In this document: positions 12,173 to 63,868 of the stretch, piece after piece
Position numbering within the stretch: position 1 is the first letter of the stretch
Layout of the letters: each line of letters begins with the position of its first letter
Assembly (NCBI RefSeq): GCF_011745625.1
Contig: NW_027191476.1
Coordinates: forward strand, 1 to 64,000
Source: Cladosporium halotolerans
Lineage: Eukaryota
Length of the DNA: 64,000 nucleotides
Direction: 5' to 3'
Position numbers and translations under genes: made by a program
The notes under the pieces: model-generated
Database searches by the model: none
Told to the model about the DNA's origin: nothing
The model's input: the letters and a program-made list of their open reading frames with translations, nothing else

Positions 12173-14836
12173 ATGACGCGCTTTGCTGCTGCCTTTTCGG
12201 CATCTTCAATTTTACTTTCTCTTAGTATACAGCCATCACATGCGCAAAACGCAACGAACATTCTCAGCTTCGTCGACCCCCTCATCGGCACGATCAATGG
12301 TGGACATGTGTTCGCCGGCGCCAGCTTGCCGTTCTCTATGGCCAAAGCCGTCGCGGATACCAACGGCGGAGAACTCCAAGGAGGCTTTGCGAGCGACGGG
12401 AGCAACATTACAGGCTTCAGCCACATGCACGACTCGGGAACCGGAGGTGTAAGTCTCTCACCGTTTTATTATTCGACAACATACCTTCGCTCGGTGCGGC
12501 TTGTGGTTTCCAAAGTGATGATCAACTTTAGACTCCTTGACTTAGATCTTCGGATCAATGAGGTGTTGATAGATGTTTGACTGACACCATTCCGTACCGA
12601 CTGCTTGCTCGTATTGTTGACAACCTACTGGGAACATTACTGACGCGCAGAACAAACAGTCTCCCTCCCTTGGAAATTTTCCCATCTTCGCTCAGGCAGG
12701 CTGTCCGGACGATGAGCTCAACAACTGTCTCTTCACAAAGACCGACCGCGCTACTCCTCGGATAAATGGCACGGTCGAGGCGAGCCCCGGCTACTTCGCC
12801 ATCGAGCTCGCATCGAGGGTTCGTGCGGAGATGACGGTTGCTAATCACACAGCATTATACCGCTTCACCTTTCCCGAGACCCCCGTCGAAGCCAACGCAC
12901 CCTTGAGCCCTCTGATTCTCGCCGATCTCTCGGACCTACCAGAATCCCGCATCAATGGATCCATCGCCGTCGACGAGCACACCGGCCGCATAACCGGCAG
13001 CGGCACATTCAGCCCAAGCTTTGGCATCGGCTCCTACACCCTGCACTTCTGCGCTGATTTCTCTGGCGCAGCCGTCCGCGACACAGGTGTCTTCATGAAC
13101 AACCGCGCCGGAAGTCAGCCCAAGAACCTCAGCGTGACTTCAGATGGCATCAACAACTCGCCGGAAATCTTGCCCGCCGGCGCCTGGACGCGCTTCAACG
13201 CATCGACTGAGATCCTCGCCCGTGTCGGCGTTAGTTTCATCTCCGTGGACCAAGCATGTTCCAACGCCGAGCGCGAGATACCGTCTTTCGACTTTCCCGC
13301 CACGCATTCCGCTGCTCGCGACGCCTGGACTTCCGCCCTGGACGTCGTGTCCATCAAACCCGGCGGGGCGAACTCCAGCCTACAAACGGTGTTCTGGTCC
13401 GGCCTCTACCGCGCCATGCTCTCGCCGCAAGACTACACGGGCGAGAACCCGCTGTGGTCAAGCGATGAGCCGTATTATGACTCATACTACTGTATTTGGG
13501 ACTCGTTCCGCAGCATCCACTCACTGATCACATTGGTAGACCCTGCAAGCCAGGCGCGTATGATCCGGAGTCTGATCGAGATCTACCGACAGGAAGGCTG
13601 GCTGCCAGACTGTAGGATGAGCTTGTGCAAGGGGTTCACGCAGGGCGGGTCGAATGCCGATGTAGTGTTGACGGAGTCGTACTTGAAGGGCATCAATGAC
13701 GGCATCGACTGGGAGACGGGATTCGAGGCTTTGCTGAAAGATGCAGAAGTAGAGCCGCCGAACTGGGCGGTTGAGGGGAGAGGCGGGTTGAAGAGTTGGA
13801 AGGAGTTGGGGTTCATCCCTACGGATGATTTTGATCCGTACGGTGTCGGGCCTTTTACAAGAAGCATCAGTCGTACGGTCGAGTATGCATATGACGACTT
13901 TTGCGTGGCGGAGATGGCGAGAGGGCTTGGCAGAACGGCCGAGTATGAGAAATATGTTGAGCGGTCGGAGTATTGGCGGTGAGTGGGCTTCAGGCGATTG
14001 ACCTGCCGATGGAGACGTTTATGCTGACTATATCTCGCAACAGCAACATGTATCAAGCGGACTCGACGAGCGCCATCAATGGGACAGACACGGGCTTCGT
14101 CGGCTTCCTGCAACCCAAGTTTCTCAATGGCACCTGGGGCTACCAAGACCCGATTTTTTGCTCTCCCCTGCTAAACTTCACTTCTTGCTACCTCAACCCT
14201 GACGGTCACGAAACCTACGAAGGCAGCTCATGGCTGTACACCTTCTACGTGCCGCATGATATGGCCAACCTGATCACGACCCTCGGCGGACCTGCAACCT
14301 TCACGAGACGGCTAGACTACTTCCACGAGTCTGGGTTGCTTTACATCGGCGACGAGCAGGGGTTTCTGGATGTCTTCCTGTACCACTACGCCGGAAGGCC
14401 AGCAAAGAGCGCCGAGCGCGCGCACTTCTACATCCCTTCGCAATTCAACGACACCGTGAACGGCATCCCAGGCAATGACGACAGCGGCGCGATGGGCTCG
14501 TTCGCGGCGCTGACGATGATGGGGATATTCCCTAACGCGGGCCAAGACGTGTATTTTATCACGCCGCCGTTCTTCGAGGAGGTCAGTTTGAGGAACAAGG
14601 ACACGGGCAAGACGGCGGTGATCAGGAATGTCGGGTTCGACGCGAGCTATGAGAGCATCTACGTGCAGAGCGCGACGCTGGATGGGAAGGCGTATACGAA
14701 GAATTGGATTGGGCACAGCTTCTTCAGGGACGGCGGAGTGCTGGAGCTGACGTTGGGACGGAACGAGAGCTCATGGGGAACGAGGGAGGAGGATCTCCCG
14801 CCCAGCCTGTCGACGAGAGGGCGAATGGGGTACTAG
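12173..14836 (+). CDS. Secreted GH92 alpha-1,2-mannosidase
   Basis: Signal peptide; VDPLIGT, GFSHMHDSGTGG|SPSLGNFP, WDSFRS, TQGGSNAD, SRTVEYAYDDF, PGNDDSGAM; introns 12449-12659 and 13979-14043. Confidence 0.95.
12505..12590 (+). ncRNA. Intronic box C/D snoRNA, predicted guide for the 25S rRNA region around yeast Cm663 (snR58/SNORD104-like)
   Basis: Box C GTGATGA 12515-12521; box D CTGA 12581-12584; internal GATC-TTCG-GATC hairpin. TTAGACTCCTTG (12528-12539) and ATAGATGTT (12569-12577) are antisense to the 25S segment CAAGGAGUCUAACAUCUAU (rRNA sequence recalled). Confidence 0.75.
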
Positions 14837-15682
14837 ACCACGTGGGTTTTGTGTTGCTGGGATGCGGCGGCATGTCGCAGGCTGGAGGTCGGTATGGCAC
14901 GTGAAACGCGGGTGAGGCGTTGTTCGCAGAAGCCGAGATGGCAGGCAGGCTGCAGGCAGGGTGGAACGTCTGATGAAACGGCGCGCTTGAAGAGGCGCCT
15001 TGTTCGCTGAGGTGCGCAAGTGATGTGCGCGTGCTTGCCGCATTGGTGCCTGCACGCCACGCCTTCCTCCTTTGCAGTACTGGGTTGCCATGCGTGCCTG
15101 AGGTTCCCTGCGTCTATACATGCTTCACTGTTGTGCCTGAGGCGGTGCGCCCTATACACGTCCATACCAGTACCTACCGCCAATTTCCATCTACCTAACA
15201 CCCCCTGAGCTGTTCGTCTCACCTCGCCTATTCCTATTATTCACGGCTTCTGCCCCTGGATGAACGATCAGCCGCCACGATGGCGATGTCAGCAATGCTG
15301 CACCACGAGGACGCCCAGCTGCGCAACGAACACGCCGTGAGCGGGCTCGAGGTACGTCTTCACACAACCCATGTTCTTTCTGCCGCTGCTTCACCTCCTC
15401 CTCGCCCTGGCCGTTTGACGGCCTGCCTCGCTGCCTCGCCGGCGCGCGCCATACCAACCCTCCCGCCCGCCAGCCAATCCCAGCCGTGCGCGCCGTAGCG
15501 TGTTCCGAACTTGCCCGCGGCCTGAGCGCTGCCCGTCAGAGCTCCCCCGGCTGCCCAGCGGCGCAAAACACGCCGCCCGCCCGCGCTCGACTTCCACCTC
15601 GTCCTCCTGTATATCGTCTTTTATTGACACCACCTCCTAGACCCATCCACCCCACCGCAGCCTCTTCAGCCGCATCACCACA

Positions 15683-17060
15683 ATGTCTTCCCCGCTCTCC
15701 TCCGACATCCCCAAGCCCTTCGGCAGCACCGAGAAGCTCGCCAAGGACGTCAACAAGGCCGTCGCCCTCCCCGTCCCGGCCTTCGGTGACCTCAGCAAGG
15801 CCGCCAACGACGTACGTATCGCCAATGTCTTCCGTCAGGTAATAGGGCCATGCGCTGACGATTCGCAAAGCTCATCAACAAGGACTTCTACCACACCGCC
15901 CAGGGTTAGCATGCGCAAACAGGTGGATCAAAAAACAGCAATGGCATACTGATGCGCGGATACAGCCACCCTTGATGTCAAGCTCAAGGCTCCCAACGGC
16001 ACCAACGTGACCGTCAAGGGCAAGCAGGGCTTCGACGGTGTCACCAGCGGCTCCGTGAGTTCCCACTGACAAACCCTCGTCTAAACCGAGCGCATGGCGG
16101 CTGACCAGCTATTCAACAGGTCGAGGGCAAGCACACTCTCAAGCCTCAAAGTACGCAAGACACCAATCCCCCTCCCCTTCCTTTACGGGATCGCAAGGGC
16201 TTCGTCAGCGCCATCATGTTCTCTACAGCGCTGCCGACGCCCTTGCGAATACCCACCTACATGTCTATCATGCACACACCCTCCAACAAAACCAACCATT
16301 CCACTCGACTCGTCCTAATGTGTCGACCTCGCACAGACGTCACCGTTACCCAGGCCTGGACCACCGCTTCCCTCCTCGACACCAAGGTCGAGCTCGCCAA
16401 CGTCGCCAGCACTGGCGTCAAGGTTGACCTCCAGAACCTCTGGAACCCCAGCAAGCCCAACAGCGCCGCCCAGAAGCTCAACCTCGCCTTCAAGAACCCT
16501 AACATCCACTCCCGCGCTTTCATCAACTACGGTCTTGCCAACGGCAACCTTGACGCCGTCCTTGACGTGACCGCCGGCCACGAGGGTTTCCTCGTCGGTG
16601 GTGAGGCTGGCTACGATGTCCAGAAGGCCGCCATCACCCGCTACTCCCTCGGTCTCGGCTACCAGGCCCCTACCTTCACCGCTTCCCTCGTCGGTAGCCA
16701 GAACCTGTCCGTCGCCGCCGCCTCCTACTACCAGAAGGTCAACTCCTCCGTCGAGGTCGGCGTCAAGGCCGCCTACGACGTCCAGAACGGCAAGCCCTCT
16801 GGCCTCGAGCTCGCCTCCAAGTACAAGCTTGACCCGCTCACCTTCGCCAAGGTAAGCTTGACCATCTCGTTTCGCAGAGCCATGCTCCATGCTAATCACT
16901 CGCAAAACAGGTCAAGGTCAACGACCGCGGTATCGCCGCCCTTGCCTACAGCACTAAGCTTAACGCCGGCACCACCCTCGGTCTCGGCCTTTCCCTCGAC
17001 ACTGCCAAGCTCAACGAGGCCGGCCACAAGATCGGCACTTCTCTCACTTTCGAGGGTTAA
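15683..17060 (+). CDS. POR1: Mitochondrial outer membrane porin (VDAC)
   Basis: VPAFGDLSKAAND|LINKDFYH, GFLVGGEAGYDVQKAAITRYS, KVNDRGIAALAY, GHKIGTSLTFEG; five introns; strong codon bias. Confidence 0.97.
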
Positions 17061-17304
17061 GTGTATGATACCCGAAAGAGCAGTTTGATGGAGGTGGTGA
17101 AGGATGGTGTGAGAGTGTACATTATGCTAGATGAGATAGCTTGCATGTGAATTGCATAGATTTTTCTCTACAGTATTCGCGATTGTGCAGGTCGATTATT
17201 GTCCTAGAATGATGCGGTAACATGAGCATGGCTTTGGATTCTCTTGTCGTCGAGAATTTGCTACGCCTGATATTTTACATAATCCTGCATTCACACATCT
17301 TACA

Positions 17305-17387
17305 GGTTCTATAGTGTAGCGGTTAGCACTTCGGATTCTGATTTCTTCGGCCTTCCGGCAACCCCGGTTCGATTCCGGGTAGGACCT
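17305..17387 (+). tRNA. tRNA-Gln (CUG) with short intron
   Basis: Acceptor GGTTCTA/TAGGACC; D arm TAGTGTAGCGGTTAGCAC; anticodon CTG at 17338-17340 followed by a ~11-nt intron; T arm CCCGGTTCGATTCCGGG; downstream T runs. Confidence 0.93.
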
Positions 17388-18002
17388 TTCCTTTTGCTCT
17401 TTCCCTGTTCCCTTTTTGTGCAAGGCCAAATATGATGTGGTCGCAGGTCATTAGTGCAATAAAAGTGTCTAGCCGTTTTACAAATTTGGCAAGATGGATG
17501 ACCCGCGCGTAGCGTCTTGCAAGCCATGAGCGAAAGCCTCCATGTGGCACCCATAGCGAGTCGACATTTGTATATCTGGGAAAAAGGTCTAGGATTGCTT
17601 CGTTGAAATACAAAATGATGACTATGACGTATATCTTTCACACAACGCTATCGATCATGGAGTTACCGACCGACATATTTCTCACACTTTCTTCAGAAGT
17701 ATCTCTGTCTGTTTTCAAAACAAAGCTCTGAGCTTTAGGCGCAATGCTCGAGGATACAGCGAGGTCGGGAGATGCTTTGGAGACAACCTCCTCCATTCAT
17801 TGACCATGCTGCTCGACTAGTCCAATACTTCGAAAGAGCGCCTAATGCAACTACATCTCTCGCAATCACCCCTGAGAAGGCTCGTAGCCTCGCTGGTAGG
17901 TTCAAAGTGAAATATGGCATTGCTTACTTGATTATTGAAAAAGAAGAAACGATGTATCTTATATCATAACAGTCTCATCTCAATTACTCATCAGTCCATC
18001 AA

Positions 18003-41465: not shown

Positions 41466-41511
41466 ATGAGTAAAAGCGCGGGCCGGCGCGGCGCGAGGCT
41501 CCTCAGCCAAT
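41466..41511 (+). promoter_or_regulatory. bZIP-like TGAGTAA site and CCAAT box in GC-rich MET6 promoter
   Basis: ATGAGTAA 41466-41473 and CCAAT 41507-41511, followed by a CT-rich leader typical of strong fungal promoters. Confidence 0.3.
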
Positions 41512-41806
41512 CGCACCCCGCGGCTGCCCGCGCCGACTGCGCTTGCGCTTGGACCCTGGGCGGGCTGGGCGCGCACAGCGGCCCAGCGCGACAATCAGCG
41601 CCGGCCGGGCAGCCCACGCAGCCCACGCAGCCCCTCCATTCCTCACCCCACCTGCTCCTCCACGCAACTTTTCTCGCCCGCGTCACTGCACATAAACACC
41701 CTTCCCCTCCTCACCCGTTTTCTTCCCTCCTCCCTCTTCCTCCTCCTCATTCTCCCCTTTCCCTTTCACCACCATTCTCCCCTTTACCATCAGACACACG
41801 TTCAAG

Positions 41807-58172: not shown

Positions 58173-59651
58173 TCAGACCACTTCTTTCGCCAACAGATCC
58201 ACATCCTCCGTACGATAATGGTCCGCGACGATCCTGTAAAGATAACTGGGGGCATGCGCGCCCAGATTCGTAATGTAGAGATCGACCAGATCGGCCTCGA
58301 CATGGTCGAAAATCGGGTTGACGACATCAACGGCGTCCATGAACTCGCCATCCTCGAACGGCACGACTTTTCCCGGGTCGCCGAACTCGATAAGCTCGTC
58401 TGTATCGAACGGATAGACGGGTGAGAGTTTGTAAATGCCGGACAAGACGACGACAGGGACGCGGTGCGCGCGGGCAGCGCGCGCGATGGTGGCTGCGCCG
58501 GCGGCGGCGATCAGGCTGCCGTTTGCGAGGACGGTGTGCGGGGCGAGGATGACTTTGTTGATACGGGACATGAGGGCGAAGACTGCGGAGTCCGGAATAA
58601 GAATCACCGTGATGCCCATGCTGGTCAGGGGCTTCCAGCGCTCATCGGCGTCGGAAGGGTTGGAGTCTGAGTCGTCGGCCTTGCGGTTGCCGTTGACAAT
58701 GGTGGCGTGGGTGGCGAGATGGTCGTTGGGGTAGGCCTCTGCGTGGACGACGGTAAACTTACGCTTGCGGGCAGCGGTGGCGAGGAACTTTTGCACAGTC
58801 TGCGAGGAAGTATGCGTGAGGATGATCTCGTTGCTGTGGATGTGGTCGAGGGCGGACTCGGCGATTTGCGAATCGACGACTTCCAGCTCGTCAAGGAGTT
58901 CTTTGATGCCGTCGATCACTTCGGCTTTGATGTCAAGCTTGCTGTCCGCCGCAGCGTCCTTTTGACGGGGTGCGGGCTTGCCAACGGGCGATTGGGTGCC
59001 TGGAGGCGGCGTCCCGGCGGGAGATGCGCCTTGAGGGGTGTGGAAGAGGCCGAAGAGGGAGGTGACTTGGGTGGGACCTTGGCCGGCGTAGGAGGGTGAT
59101 GTGGCACCGAGCTGGGGTCGCTGCTCGGCCGAATCTTGTGCTAGGGGAGTGATGTCGCCGCTTGACATCGGTCGTGCGTGCATGTCGTGTGGCAGAGCGC
59201 CGCCGTGGTGTAGCGGGCTAAAGCTGGAAATGGTGGAGGAGATGCCGGGCCGGTGAGGAGTCGCTTTTGACGCGGACTGGCTTGGAGAAGTGGGCGTGGA
59301 AGTGTCGCTCGTGGCGGACTGGTCTTGGTCCTCTTCTGCAACCTCGCGAATCACACCAAGAACGCGGCGGACAATGTTGCCCACGGCCATCTCACCAGGC
59401 TGGGCCGCTACCAATCGCCGACCAACATTGCGGATGCGTGTGATGAGGGCCTGGGCATCTCTGGTGCGCTCTCCGGCTACGACGCGAAGGAGAAGCTGTG
59501 TCGTGGCAAGCGCACAAGGTCTGGAGTTCCTGATCTGTCGGCGTTGCAGAAGAGAGATGAAGAGCTCGATTGACGTTTCAATGTCTTTGGATTTGAGCGT
59601 CTTGAGGAAAGTCGAGAGAGAGGGCGCCTGCCCAGGGACAACAGAGGGCAT
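58173..59651 (-). CDS. GCD7: Translation initiation factor eIF2B beta subunit
   Basis: AQPGEMAVGNIVRRVL, HIHSNEIILT, DSAVFALMSRINKVIL, YKLSPVYP, GAHAPSYLYR; likely start MPSVVPGQAP at 59651. Confidence 0.94.
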   Translation of the reverse strand: MPSVVPGQAPSLSTFLKTLKSKDIETSIELFISLLQRRQIRNSRPCALATTQLLLRVVAGERTRDAQALITRIRNVGRRLVAAQPGEMAVGNIVRRVLGVIREVAEEDQDQSATSDTSTPTSPSQSASKATPHRPGISSTISSFSPLHHGGALPHDMHARPMSSGDITPLAQDSAEQRPQLGATSPSYAGQGPTQVTSLFGLFHTPQGASPAGTPPPGTQSPVGKPAPRQKDAAADSKLDIKAEVIDGIKELLDELEVVDSQIAESALDHIHSNEIILTHTSSQTVQKFLATAARKRKFTVVHAEAYPNDHLATHATIVNGNRKADDSDSNPSDADERWKPLTSMGITVILIPDSAVFALMSRINKVILAPHTVLANGSLIAAAGAATIARAARAHRVPVVVLSGIYKLSPVYPFDTDELIEFGDPGKVVPFEDGEFMDAVDVVNPIFDHVEADLVDLYITNLGAHAPSYLYRIVADHYRTEDVDLLAKEVV

Positions 59652-62428: not shown

Positions 62429-63868
62429 CTATCGCCCAACCGAAGCCTCCTTAACCTCATTCTCCAACTGCTCGCTGGGCGCATCCCTCCCCGTCCCAGC
62501 GCCAGCGCCAGCACCAGCACCAGCACCACTCACAGGCCGTCCCCTCCTCCCCCTCGAACTCTCCTCGATCGGGCTCTTAGCCTCCGGGCTGTCGTCCTCG
62601 CCGCTATTCGTGGGGCTCGGGGCGCGGCTGTCGGACAGGTTGCGGCGGTTGCTGCCCTGCATCCAGCCCTTGACGCCGCCGATGAGGCCCATGGCGTAGC
62701 CGGCGGCGAAGTCGTAGTTCTTGCCGCCGTGCTTGCCGCTGCCGTTGGGCGTGGAAGCGCGCTGGGCGGCGCCGGCGGCGTCGAGGGGCGACAGGCGCTC
62801 GACGGCGAGCGGGGATTTGGCGCCGGAGCTCAGGCCGCCGCCGGGCGTGAGGCTGCGGAGCGACGGGGCGGGGGAGTTGTTGCGCGAGGGTTGCCAGAAT
62901 TGCTTGAGCTCGCGGGACAGTTCTTGGCCGGTGGTGGCCCAGTTCTGGCGGATGTTATCGCGGAGCTCGCCGACGTGGCGTTTGATGTCGAGTTCGTTCT
63001 TCTTGAGCCAGGAGACGTTGAGCTCCTGGCGCGAGGTGCCGCGCTTGAACTGGCGGGCGATGTACTGCTCGTAGTCGCGGACGACCTTTGTGATGATGCC
63101 GGTGGTGCTGACGCCCTCGGTGCGCTGCGTGACGAGGAACTTGCCCTGCTCCTTGATGGGCTTGTAGATGTCGTCGCCCTCGGAGGCGCCGTAGGGGATG
63201 TCGTCGTGCGCGACGTAGTCGATCGAGTGCTTCGCCAGGAAGTCGACGTTGATGACCCAGGGGCAGTCCTCGACGACCTCGTCGACCCACTTGCAGTGGC
63301 GGACGGACTCGGCGCGCTCTTTGGCCGAGAGGACCGTGAGGCCCTTGCGCTTGTGCGTCTCTTCGTCGCCCGTCACGCCGACGATCAGGTAGGTGCCGGG
63401 GAAGGCTTCCTTCGCCTGTTGGAGCTGACGCATATGTCTGTGTTACATCCCGAAGTCAGCCTTCGATTCCCAGTTTATCCCATCGCACACCTCAGCTCGA
63501 GGAAGATACAAAACTCACCCAAGATGAAACAGATCAAAAACCCCGTCGGCGTAAACCCTCACCGGCCTTCCGGTCGGAGGCTTATTCGTCTTGTATCCTC
63601 CCTGGGGATCAACCGCGCCAGCCTTAGGCGGCGGAGCCATGCGCATCTTGCCCGCCTCGCCGTGCTCGCCGGCCTCGTTGACGGTGGTGCCATTGGTCTT
63701 GCTGGAGCGCGTGCGCTTCGCGGGCTTGGAGTCGTCCTCGTCATTGTTGGCATTGTTCGCGTCTGTGGACTCGTCGGCGGAGGGAGCGGCGGCGGCGGCG
63801 GCGGCGGGATACTCAGCCGGCTGCTCGTCCTTAGAAAGCGTGCCGGCGCGCTTGCGTTTCGGAGCCAT
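62429..63868 (-). CDS. PCT1: Choline-phosphate cytidylyltransferase
   Basis: VRVYADGVFDLFHLG|HM (HxGH), HCKWVDEV, YVAHDD, QRTEGVSTT; intron 63438-63518. Confidence 0.96.
63786..63806 (+). repeat. (GCG)n microsatellite encoding poly-Ala in the PCT1 N-terminus
   Basis: Seven GCG units; AAAAAAA in the minus-strand protein. Confidence 0.8.

Follow-up and report, generated by a model that had tools for sequence, protein, structure and literature searches.

We consider it likely that intron 4 of the only VDAC (mitochondrial porin) gene found in this genome is a deeply conserved protein-coding intron, which probably yields a minor, putative long VDAC with three new barrel strands. The gene lies in the 64,000-nucleotide stretch of DNA analysed here (the window), and its intron 4 appears to be a dual-use sequence. 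At the level of RNA contigs, most transcripts remove it and encode the ordinary channel; a minority seems to keep it, presumably aided by a 5' splice site that is often weak. Since the intron has been kept a multiple of three in length, free of stops and conserved as protein, translation of the retained mRNA would most likely yield a longer VDAC, in which 36-69 residues (the range across orthologues) are added between strands beta3 and beta4. The insert is predicted to form three beta-strands joined to beta4. In the simplest model these would stand in for beta1-3 in a barrel of 19 strands, with the native beta1-3 looped out, and the replaced segment of the wall, more hydrophobic on the pore side, could alter gating, selectivity or partners. 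The fuller reading, in which a single porin gene gives a putative second VDAC by intron retention, the three strands swap with or add to beta1-3, and the arrangement has been selected in at least five classes, is a serious possibility that we put forward more tentatively.

VDAC, the main mitochondrial channel, serves as the principal gate of the outer membrane, and its 19-strand barrel has been treated as fixed. If the fuller reading is correct, alternative splicing can remodel a membrane beta-barrel through a conserved, intron-encoded module of three strands, rebuilding the wall or the diameter of the barrel, so that the channel would differ in conductance, lipid handling or partners. A second isoform would become available to filamentous fungi that have a single porin gene, and this would offer a natural test of the part played by strand number and identity in gating and in assembly by the SAM complex. 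The reading would also explain the length (320-400 aa) of many public Aspergillus and Dothideomycete porin models, which would then not be simple annotation errors, and not the main product either. A usually spliced intron that evolves like protein-coding DNA would, in short, suggest that a longer form of the channel has been overlooked.

Gene structure and conservation of the intron 4 reading frame

Table 1. Coordinates of the VDAC gene and of the features of its fourth intron, in positions of the window.
Feature	Position	Strand	Basis or remark
VDAC (mitochondrial porin) gene	15683..17060	+	six coding exons; translation
VDAC coding exons	15683-15811, 15871-15904, 15966-16054, 16120-16150, 16337-16851, 16911-17060	+	
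Micro-exon, 31 nt, coding for barrel strand beta3	16120..16150	+	RNA joints at both ends
Intron 4, phase 1, 186 nt, stop-free; if kept, 62 aa between beta3 and beta4	16151..16336	+	RNA joints, frame statistics, alignment
Intron 4 5' splice site, GTACGC	16151..16156	+	donor often weak among orthologues
Intron 4 branch point CCTAAT (16314-16319) and 3' splice site CAG	16314..16336	+	
Variable Ser/Pro/Lys-rich linker opening the insert; missing in the shortest inserts	16150..16200	+	alignment
Conserved block A, predicted membrane beta-strand	16201..16230	+	alignment; strand 118-123 of the P0003 model, mapped via the alignment
Conserved block B, predicted membrane beta-strand	16255..16278	+	alignment; strand 132-139 of the P0003 model
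Conserved block C, predicted beta-strand adjoining beta4	16300..16323	+	alignment; strand 146-153 of the P0003 model
Internal AG	16227..16228	+	neither conserved nor observed as acceptor
RNA hairpin, 19 pairs, lineage-restricted, overlapping block A	16191..16248	+	

All five introns of the gene (Table 1) are skipped in RNA contigs X7 and X13. The spliced product is an ordinary VDAC, which matches the Pfam family Porin_3 above the cut-off and aligns to yeast porin; the nearest named proteins are those of Cladosporium fusiforme (84% over the query) and C. inversicolor (83%), and a search of the source genome itself returned one VDAC match only. The exon 5' to intron 4 is a micro-exon, which we take to encode beta3, a numbering backed by the alignment to yeast porin; a micro-exon of 28 or 31 nt is present in all 69 genomic loci that carry intron 4. 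The intron is bounded by GT and AG, and because RNA contigs from two of the four runs (X7 and X13) skip exactly its 186 bases, it is a true intron. An earlier note on this DNA had described it as 186 nt long, a multiple of three and free of in-frame stops, so that retention would add 62 aa; translation confirms this, the product growing from 315 to 377 aa.

Homologous loci were fetched with the downstream exon as the sole query and were thus not selected on the insert. Of the 80 fetched, 79 were analysed together with the window; L032, in which the match starts downstream of the intron, was left out. Intron 4 is present in 69 of the resulting 80 loci, 10 are intronless and one (L062) is cut short before the micro-exon. 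The 69 introns, 108-207 nt in length, comprise 45 distinct sequences, which form 31 clusters at 70% identity. In 27 of the 31 clusters (41 of the 45 distinct introns) the length of the intron is a multiple of three and its frame has no stop, where about 1.4 clusters would be expected, with the proviso that clusters share ancestry; without the window's own cluster the count is 26 of 30. Of the two remaining frames, one is open in 2 of the 31 clusters and the other in 8. Neighbouring introns of the same genes served as controls, and were open multiples of three in 1 of 29 clusters for intron 3 and in 0 of 21 for intron 5.

The substitution pattern is likewise that of coding sequence. The dN/dS ratio of the insert is 0.32 (pS 0.41, pN 0.17; 12 disjoint pairs), compared with 0.10 for the flanking exon, the branch point constraining part of block C. 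Nucleotide alignments of 10 pairs gave 85, 59 and 135 mismatches at the first, second and third codon positions, an excess at the third, and six of the eight gaps in such alignments are multiples of three. At the protein level the insert consists of three conserved blocks with variable loops between them and an optional linker ahead, and the inserts of Dothideomycetes have a common F...LP.PLR-type pattern. Block C overlaps the branch point and is therefore dual-coded. The frame is lost in four clusters (L037, L063, L075 and L079). In L037 an insert-like protein can be read on both sides of a frameshift, and the loss there looks either recent or like an assembly error. Strain variants of the window's intron 4 keep the frame open. 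Within 16255-16298, the region of block B, strain variants turn a Thr of the window into Leu or Ile, the residue class found in relatives.

Named long gene models were found in five classes of Pezizomycotina (Dothideo-, Leotio-, Geoglosso-, Lecanoro- and Eurotiomycetes); being gene predictions, they indicate range and not expression. The long form accounts for 61 of 75 NCBI models, which are also predictions and were retrieved with queries that favoured long forms, and none of the named matches listed is from Sordariomycetes, Pezizomycetes or Orbiliomycetes. The mention in the earlier note of long porin models in other filamentous ascomycetes is thus borne out, but the motif it gave for them, LVS.ILFS.ALP, was not matched. 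Its proposal that the frame and insert are deeply conserved agrees with the ortholog alignment (27 of 31 clusters in frame and stop-free, dN/dS about 0.3). As judged from these sequence comparisons, selection has kept intron 4 a multiple of three, stop-free and conserved as protein across Pezizomycotina.

The splice signals of intron 4 were compared with those of its neighbours. G is found at donor position +5 in 13 of 31 clusters for intron 4 as against 28 of 29 for intron 3, the latter count coming from a donor-picking procedure that favoured G at +5; in the Cladosporium-like group the intron 4 donor is near consensus. Mean GC content over the 31 clusters is 0.477 for intron 4, 0.567 for the next exon and 0.474 for the last 50 nt of intron 3.

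Several other observations were made on the gene and its surroundings. The N-terminus of the VDAC (15683-15770) has a segment of about 30 extra amino acids before the usual helix, which it loosely repeats, with two 'P.F..D..K..N'-like stretches; related Dothideomycete porins vary in their N-terminal extension. Upstream, at 15280-15352, there is an ATG-started frame ending at a possible donor near 15353, and the longer N-termini of two relatives (P0004 and P0077) open with a 'MAM...' segment resembling it, a hint of an alternative first exon at this site. Exons 2 and 3 (within 15812-16119) total 123 nt and are flanked by two phase-0 introns (1 and 3), so that beta1-2 would be lost in frame if both exons were skipped; no joint skipping the two exons together was seen in the RNA contigs of the four runs. 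Upstream of VDAC, on the same strand, is a gene for a family 92 glycosyl hydrolase (12621-14836). At 17304-17388, 240 bases past the VDAC stop codon, ARAGORN predicts a tRNA-Gln(CTG) gene, whose anticodon loop has additional bases that point to a short tRNA intron.

Predicted structure of the proposed long form

Yeast porin aligns only to positions 1-67 and 105-324 of the profile, with the insert falling between beta3 and beta4. Pfam has no family for the insert alone, and the ESM Atlas returned porin clusters only, with no structure. The minimal insert of 42 aa equals the span of beta1-3, and its hydrophobic residues alternate as in a membrane strand. At the places where beta3 carries E and K, strand C has L and F, which would make the side facing the pore more hydrophobic. 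An origin of the insert by duplication of beta1-3 gained no support from sequence homology: the lengths are equal, yet the profile probability was below 1% against beta1-3 and against all other windows of the barrel.

Two long forms were modelled with AlphaFold, both with modest confidence (pTM 0.53 and 0.47), and the program may favour the known 19-strand fold. In the model of the C. fusiforme long form (P0003), strands were predicted at 118-123, 132-139 and 146-153; pLDDT is 77-85 in the blocks and under 50 in native beta1-3, and counting from the insert on there are 19 strands. Its best structural match is VDAC (human VDAC1: Z 22.0, rmsd 3.2, 257 residues aligned). The Scytalidium long model (P0145), which has a minimal insert and deeper N-terminal coverage, showed a like pattern at pLDDT 63-69. 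Its residues 72-324 align to residues 26-283 of VDAC at an rmsd of about 10, so it is not a clean 19-strand barrel, and residues 24-324 align to larger bacterial barrels, such as 5fp2 (Z 15.6, rmsd 7.1, 270 aligned). The insert strands are thus predicted to sit in the barrel next to beta4, the models being split between replacement (19 strands) and expansion (22 strands).

Expansion, in which the three strands are added to the barrel to give a wider, all-antiparallel pore of 22 strands, seems to us somewhat unlikely. It is favoured by the shortest inserts, which join block A to beta3 by a tight turn only, and by the fit of the P0145 model to larger barrels. Strand number is moreover not fixed, since an 18-stranded VDAC variant of Neurospora crassa assembles in vivo, as far as the available text of PMC8485043 goes, which makes a changed number possible. 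However, native beta1-3 are of low confidence in both models, the P0003 model fits a 19-strand VDAC closely, and the insert matches beta1-3 in length, all of which argue for replacement. This variant concerns the barrel and does not compete with the proposed retention of intron 4 on the RNA side.

The intronic hairpin

The earlier note had drawn attention to a stem of about 21 positions with two mismatches around a 16-nt loop. Folding reproduces it as 19 pairs with two U-C mismatches at 16191-16248 (-34.3 kcal/mol). The whole intron folds with a z score of -6.39, none of 200 shuffles folding as well, and the hairpin is more stable than all 1000 of 1000 synonymous recodings. Among 6394 windows of 60 nt scanned, its window is in the top five for stability; 60-nt windows as strong or stronger, down to -39 kcal/mol, were seen at 62600-63060, 58450-58540 and 41470-41620. 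No Rfam family was found over intron 4 at the gathering score, the best match being at chance level (E 3.6; 14.7 bits, the cut-off being 150), and the intron was not assigned to any known family, such as an intronic snoRNA.

The hairpin is a secondary feature local to the Cladosporium-like group; what has been conserved is not this structure but the frame and the peptide. All six members of the group fold better than their synonymous recodings, at the same place, with z scores from -1.4 to -6.5. Outside the group, a hairpin below z -2 relative to synonymous recoding was found in only 1 of 26 open lineages, with a mean z of -0.25. No covariation was detected in the window's stem among six related sequences (211 and 79 of 500 shuffles reached the observed values), and the consensus stem of close relatives sits in another register. 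The proposal of a structured cis-element conserved in RNA was therefore not supported, and as a conserved element the hairpin was rejected beyond the Cladosporium-like group.

Within the Cladosporium-like group the hairpin may tune splicing and retention, or it may be a perfected quasi-palindrome. That it modulates how often intron 4 is retained, as an addition to the retention model, we regard as unlikely. Its shared position in all six members is consistent with such a role, and 14 of the 19 pairs of the window can also form in the majority sequence of the relatives, one of them through a two-sided change. Of the eight distinct variant sites found in two strains, only one falls within the stem arms, but that one breaks a pair. 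In addition, all six sequences come from close relatives, the window was picked for its hairpin, the covariation is not significant, and lineage-specific perfection of a quasi-palindrome would look alike.

Transcripts, the internal AG and comparison with known systems

Spliced intron 4 was seen in two of the three runs that show joints; run X2 shows none and is probably DNA. The spliced form is also found at 10 of 10 intronless loci and in 11 of 13 cDNA-like environmental ORFs, sets that overlap, despite searches biased toward the long form. At the level of RNA contigs, which are not single molecules and cannot give levels, these counts show in a rough way that the spliced VDAC mRNA dominates. 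Retention was seen in RNA contig X3, which has lost introns 1, 3 and 5 by splicing but keeps introns 2 and 4; this contig may be partly spliced pre-mRNA, and the kept intron 2 shifts the frame. The insert is also kept in the other two of the 13 cDNA-like ORFs (P0107 and P0169), from which neighbouring introns are gone. Both ORFs come from Logan contigs of 1.4 kb and extend over the sites where introns 2, 3 and 5 would lie, and P0169 reads through its last intron too. Among 177 environmental proteins, 61 carry the micro-exon without the upstream exons, as expected of intron-unaware calls on genomic DNA. On this ground we infer that P0107 and P0169 are cDNA-like.

Another reading is that the frame has been kept only because it makes leaky retention harmless in a gene with very high expression, the long product being a tolerated one that lacks its own function. 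The dominance of the spliced form and the loss of the frame in 4 of 31 clusters are what this would lead one to expect. Yet the neighbouring introns of the same genes do not preserve the frame (1 of 29 and 0 of 21 clusters), and harmless leakage by itself would predict neither a dN/dS of 0.3, nor three conserved blocks that resemble strands, nor a hydrophobic pattern of the strand type; we consider it improbable. We favour a retained intron that would yield a longer channel, and the effect on porin isoform output proposed in the earlier note is likely, given the conserved frame and insert.

The AG at 16228 is not a working feature. Its use would leave a 78-nt intron and a 351-aa product, and in this the arithmetic of the earlier note was correct. 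However, no CTRAY branch point is present 8-40 nt upstream, none of five close relatives has a counterpart, position 16228 reads A in two strains (AA for AG), and no RNA joint to 16229 was seen among the contigs of the four runs. The claim that the hairpin covers a usable internal 3' splice site was accordingly not upheld. A conserved internal acceptor in phase 0 or 1 was also sought and rejected, candidate positions being scattered across orthologues and none having a branch point. That a conserved hairpin hides this site and switches acceptors is thus very improbable: the hairpin is far beyond chance and all six Cladosporium-like members fold better than their recodings, but the AG has the shortcomings just given, and the structure lacks covariation, lies in another register in relatives and is absent from 25 of 26 other lineages. 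That the long form is a gene-prediction artefact, open in frame by chance, is scarcely credible and is already contradicted. The long NCBI records are indeed predictions, and gene-finding programs do extend a model through an intron that stays open, but the frame counts and dN/dS were taken from DNA loci with no annotation involved.

The literature searched, mostly outside subscription journals, contained no published description of the insert. It goes unmentioned in the available text of PMC1838418 and PMC9506537, and a short insert motif was not matched in three supplements of the former, where alignment rows may be broken by gaps. Fungal intronic RNA structures offer one point of comparison (PMC5640933, PMC8216456), since the VDAC intron likewise has a long hairpin in a filamentous fungus. 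The motifs treated in the main texts of those two papers, which do not mention porin or VDAC, are defined by conserved structure, whereas the VDAC hairpin lacks covariation; its assignment to this class was rejected, since it is also absent in most lineages and has no conserved usable splice site beneath it. With the 19-stranded VDACs of the Porin_3 family (PDB 6g6u, 3emn, 9jvq) the spliced product agrees as an ordinary VDAC, and the long model matches VDAC best; the insert, unlike the remainder, is covered by none of the 12 solved sequences matched.

Exitrons, as characterized in the available part of PMC4494720, are free of stops, multiples of three in length, rich in synonymous changes and often bounded by weak splice sites. 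VDAC intron 4 resembles them in each of these respects (dN/dS 0.32, donor often weak). Exitrons, however, have a high GC content, are as a rule kept in the major isoform and for the most part encode disordered regions (PMC4494720), while the GC content of VDAC intron 4 is intron-like (0.477), its insert is predicted to be structured, and the spliced form is both dominant and the ancestral fold (10 of 10 loci and 11 of 13 ORFs, rough counts from contigs that give no levels). Because it differs in GC content and in the major isoform, we do not file it as an exitron.

The best reading is that VDAC intron 4 would work like the retained intron of PTC7 in Saccharomycotina yeasts, to which it is comparable by the sequence criteria used there. 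According to the available text of PMC7491326, PTC7 has a conserved, stop-free intron that is a multiple of three, and its retention gives a second isoform with an added membrane element, a single transmembrane helix that changes localisation; both isoforms were shown experimentally. That work took intron coverage of at least 10% of junction reads as its criterion, beside which the present observations are of contigs only, with intron 4 kept in X3 and in 2 of the 13 cDNA-like ORFs. As in PTC7, the VDAC intron is at an orthologous position, a multiple of three and stop-free across species (27 of 31 clusters), and is a true intron that is spliced in mRNA (X7, X13 and the 10 intronless loci). It differs from PTC7 in that the insert, known from sequence and models, would supply three predicted beta-strands inside a beta-barrel, in five classes of Pezizomycotina.
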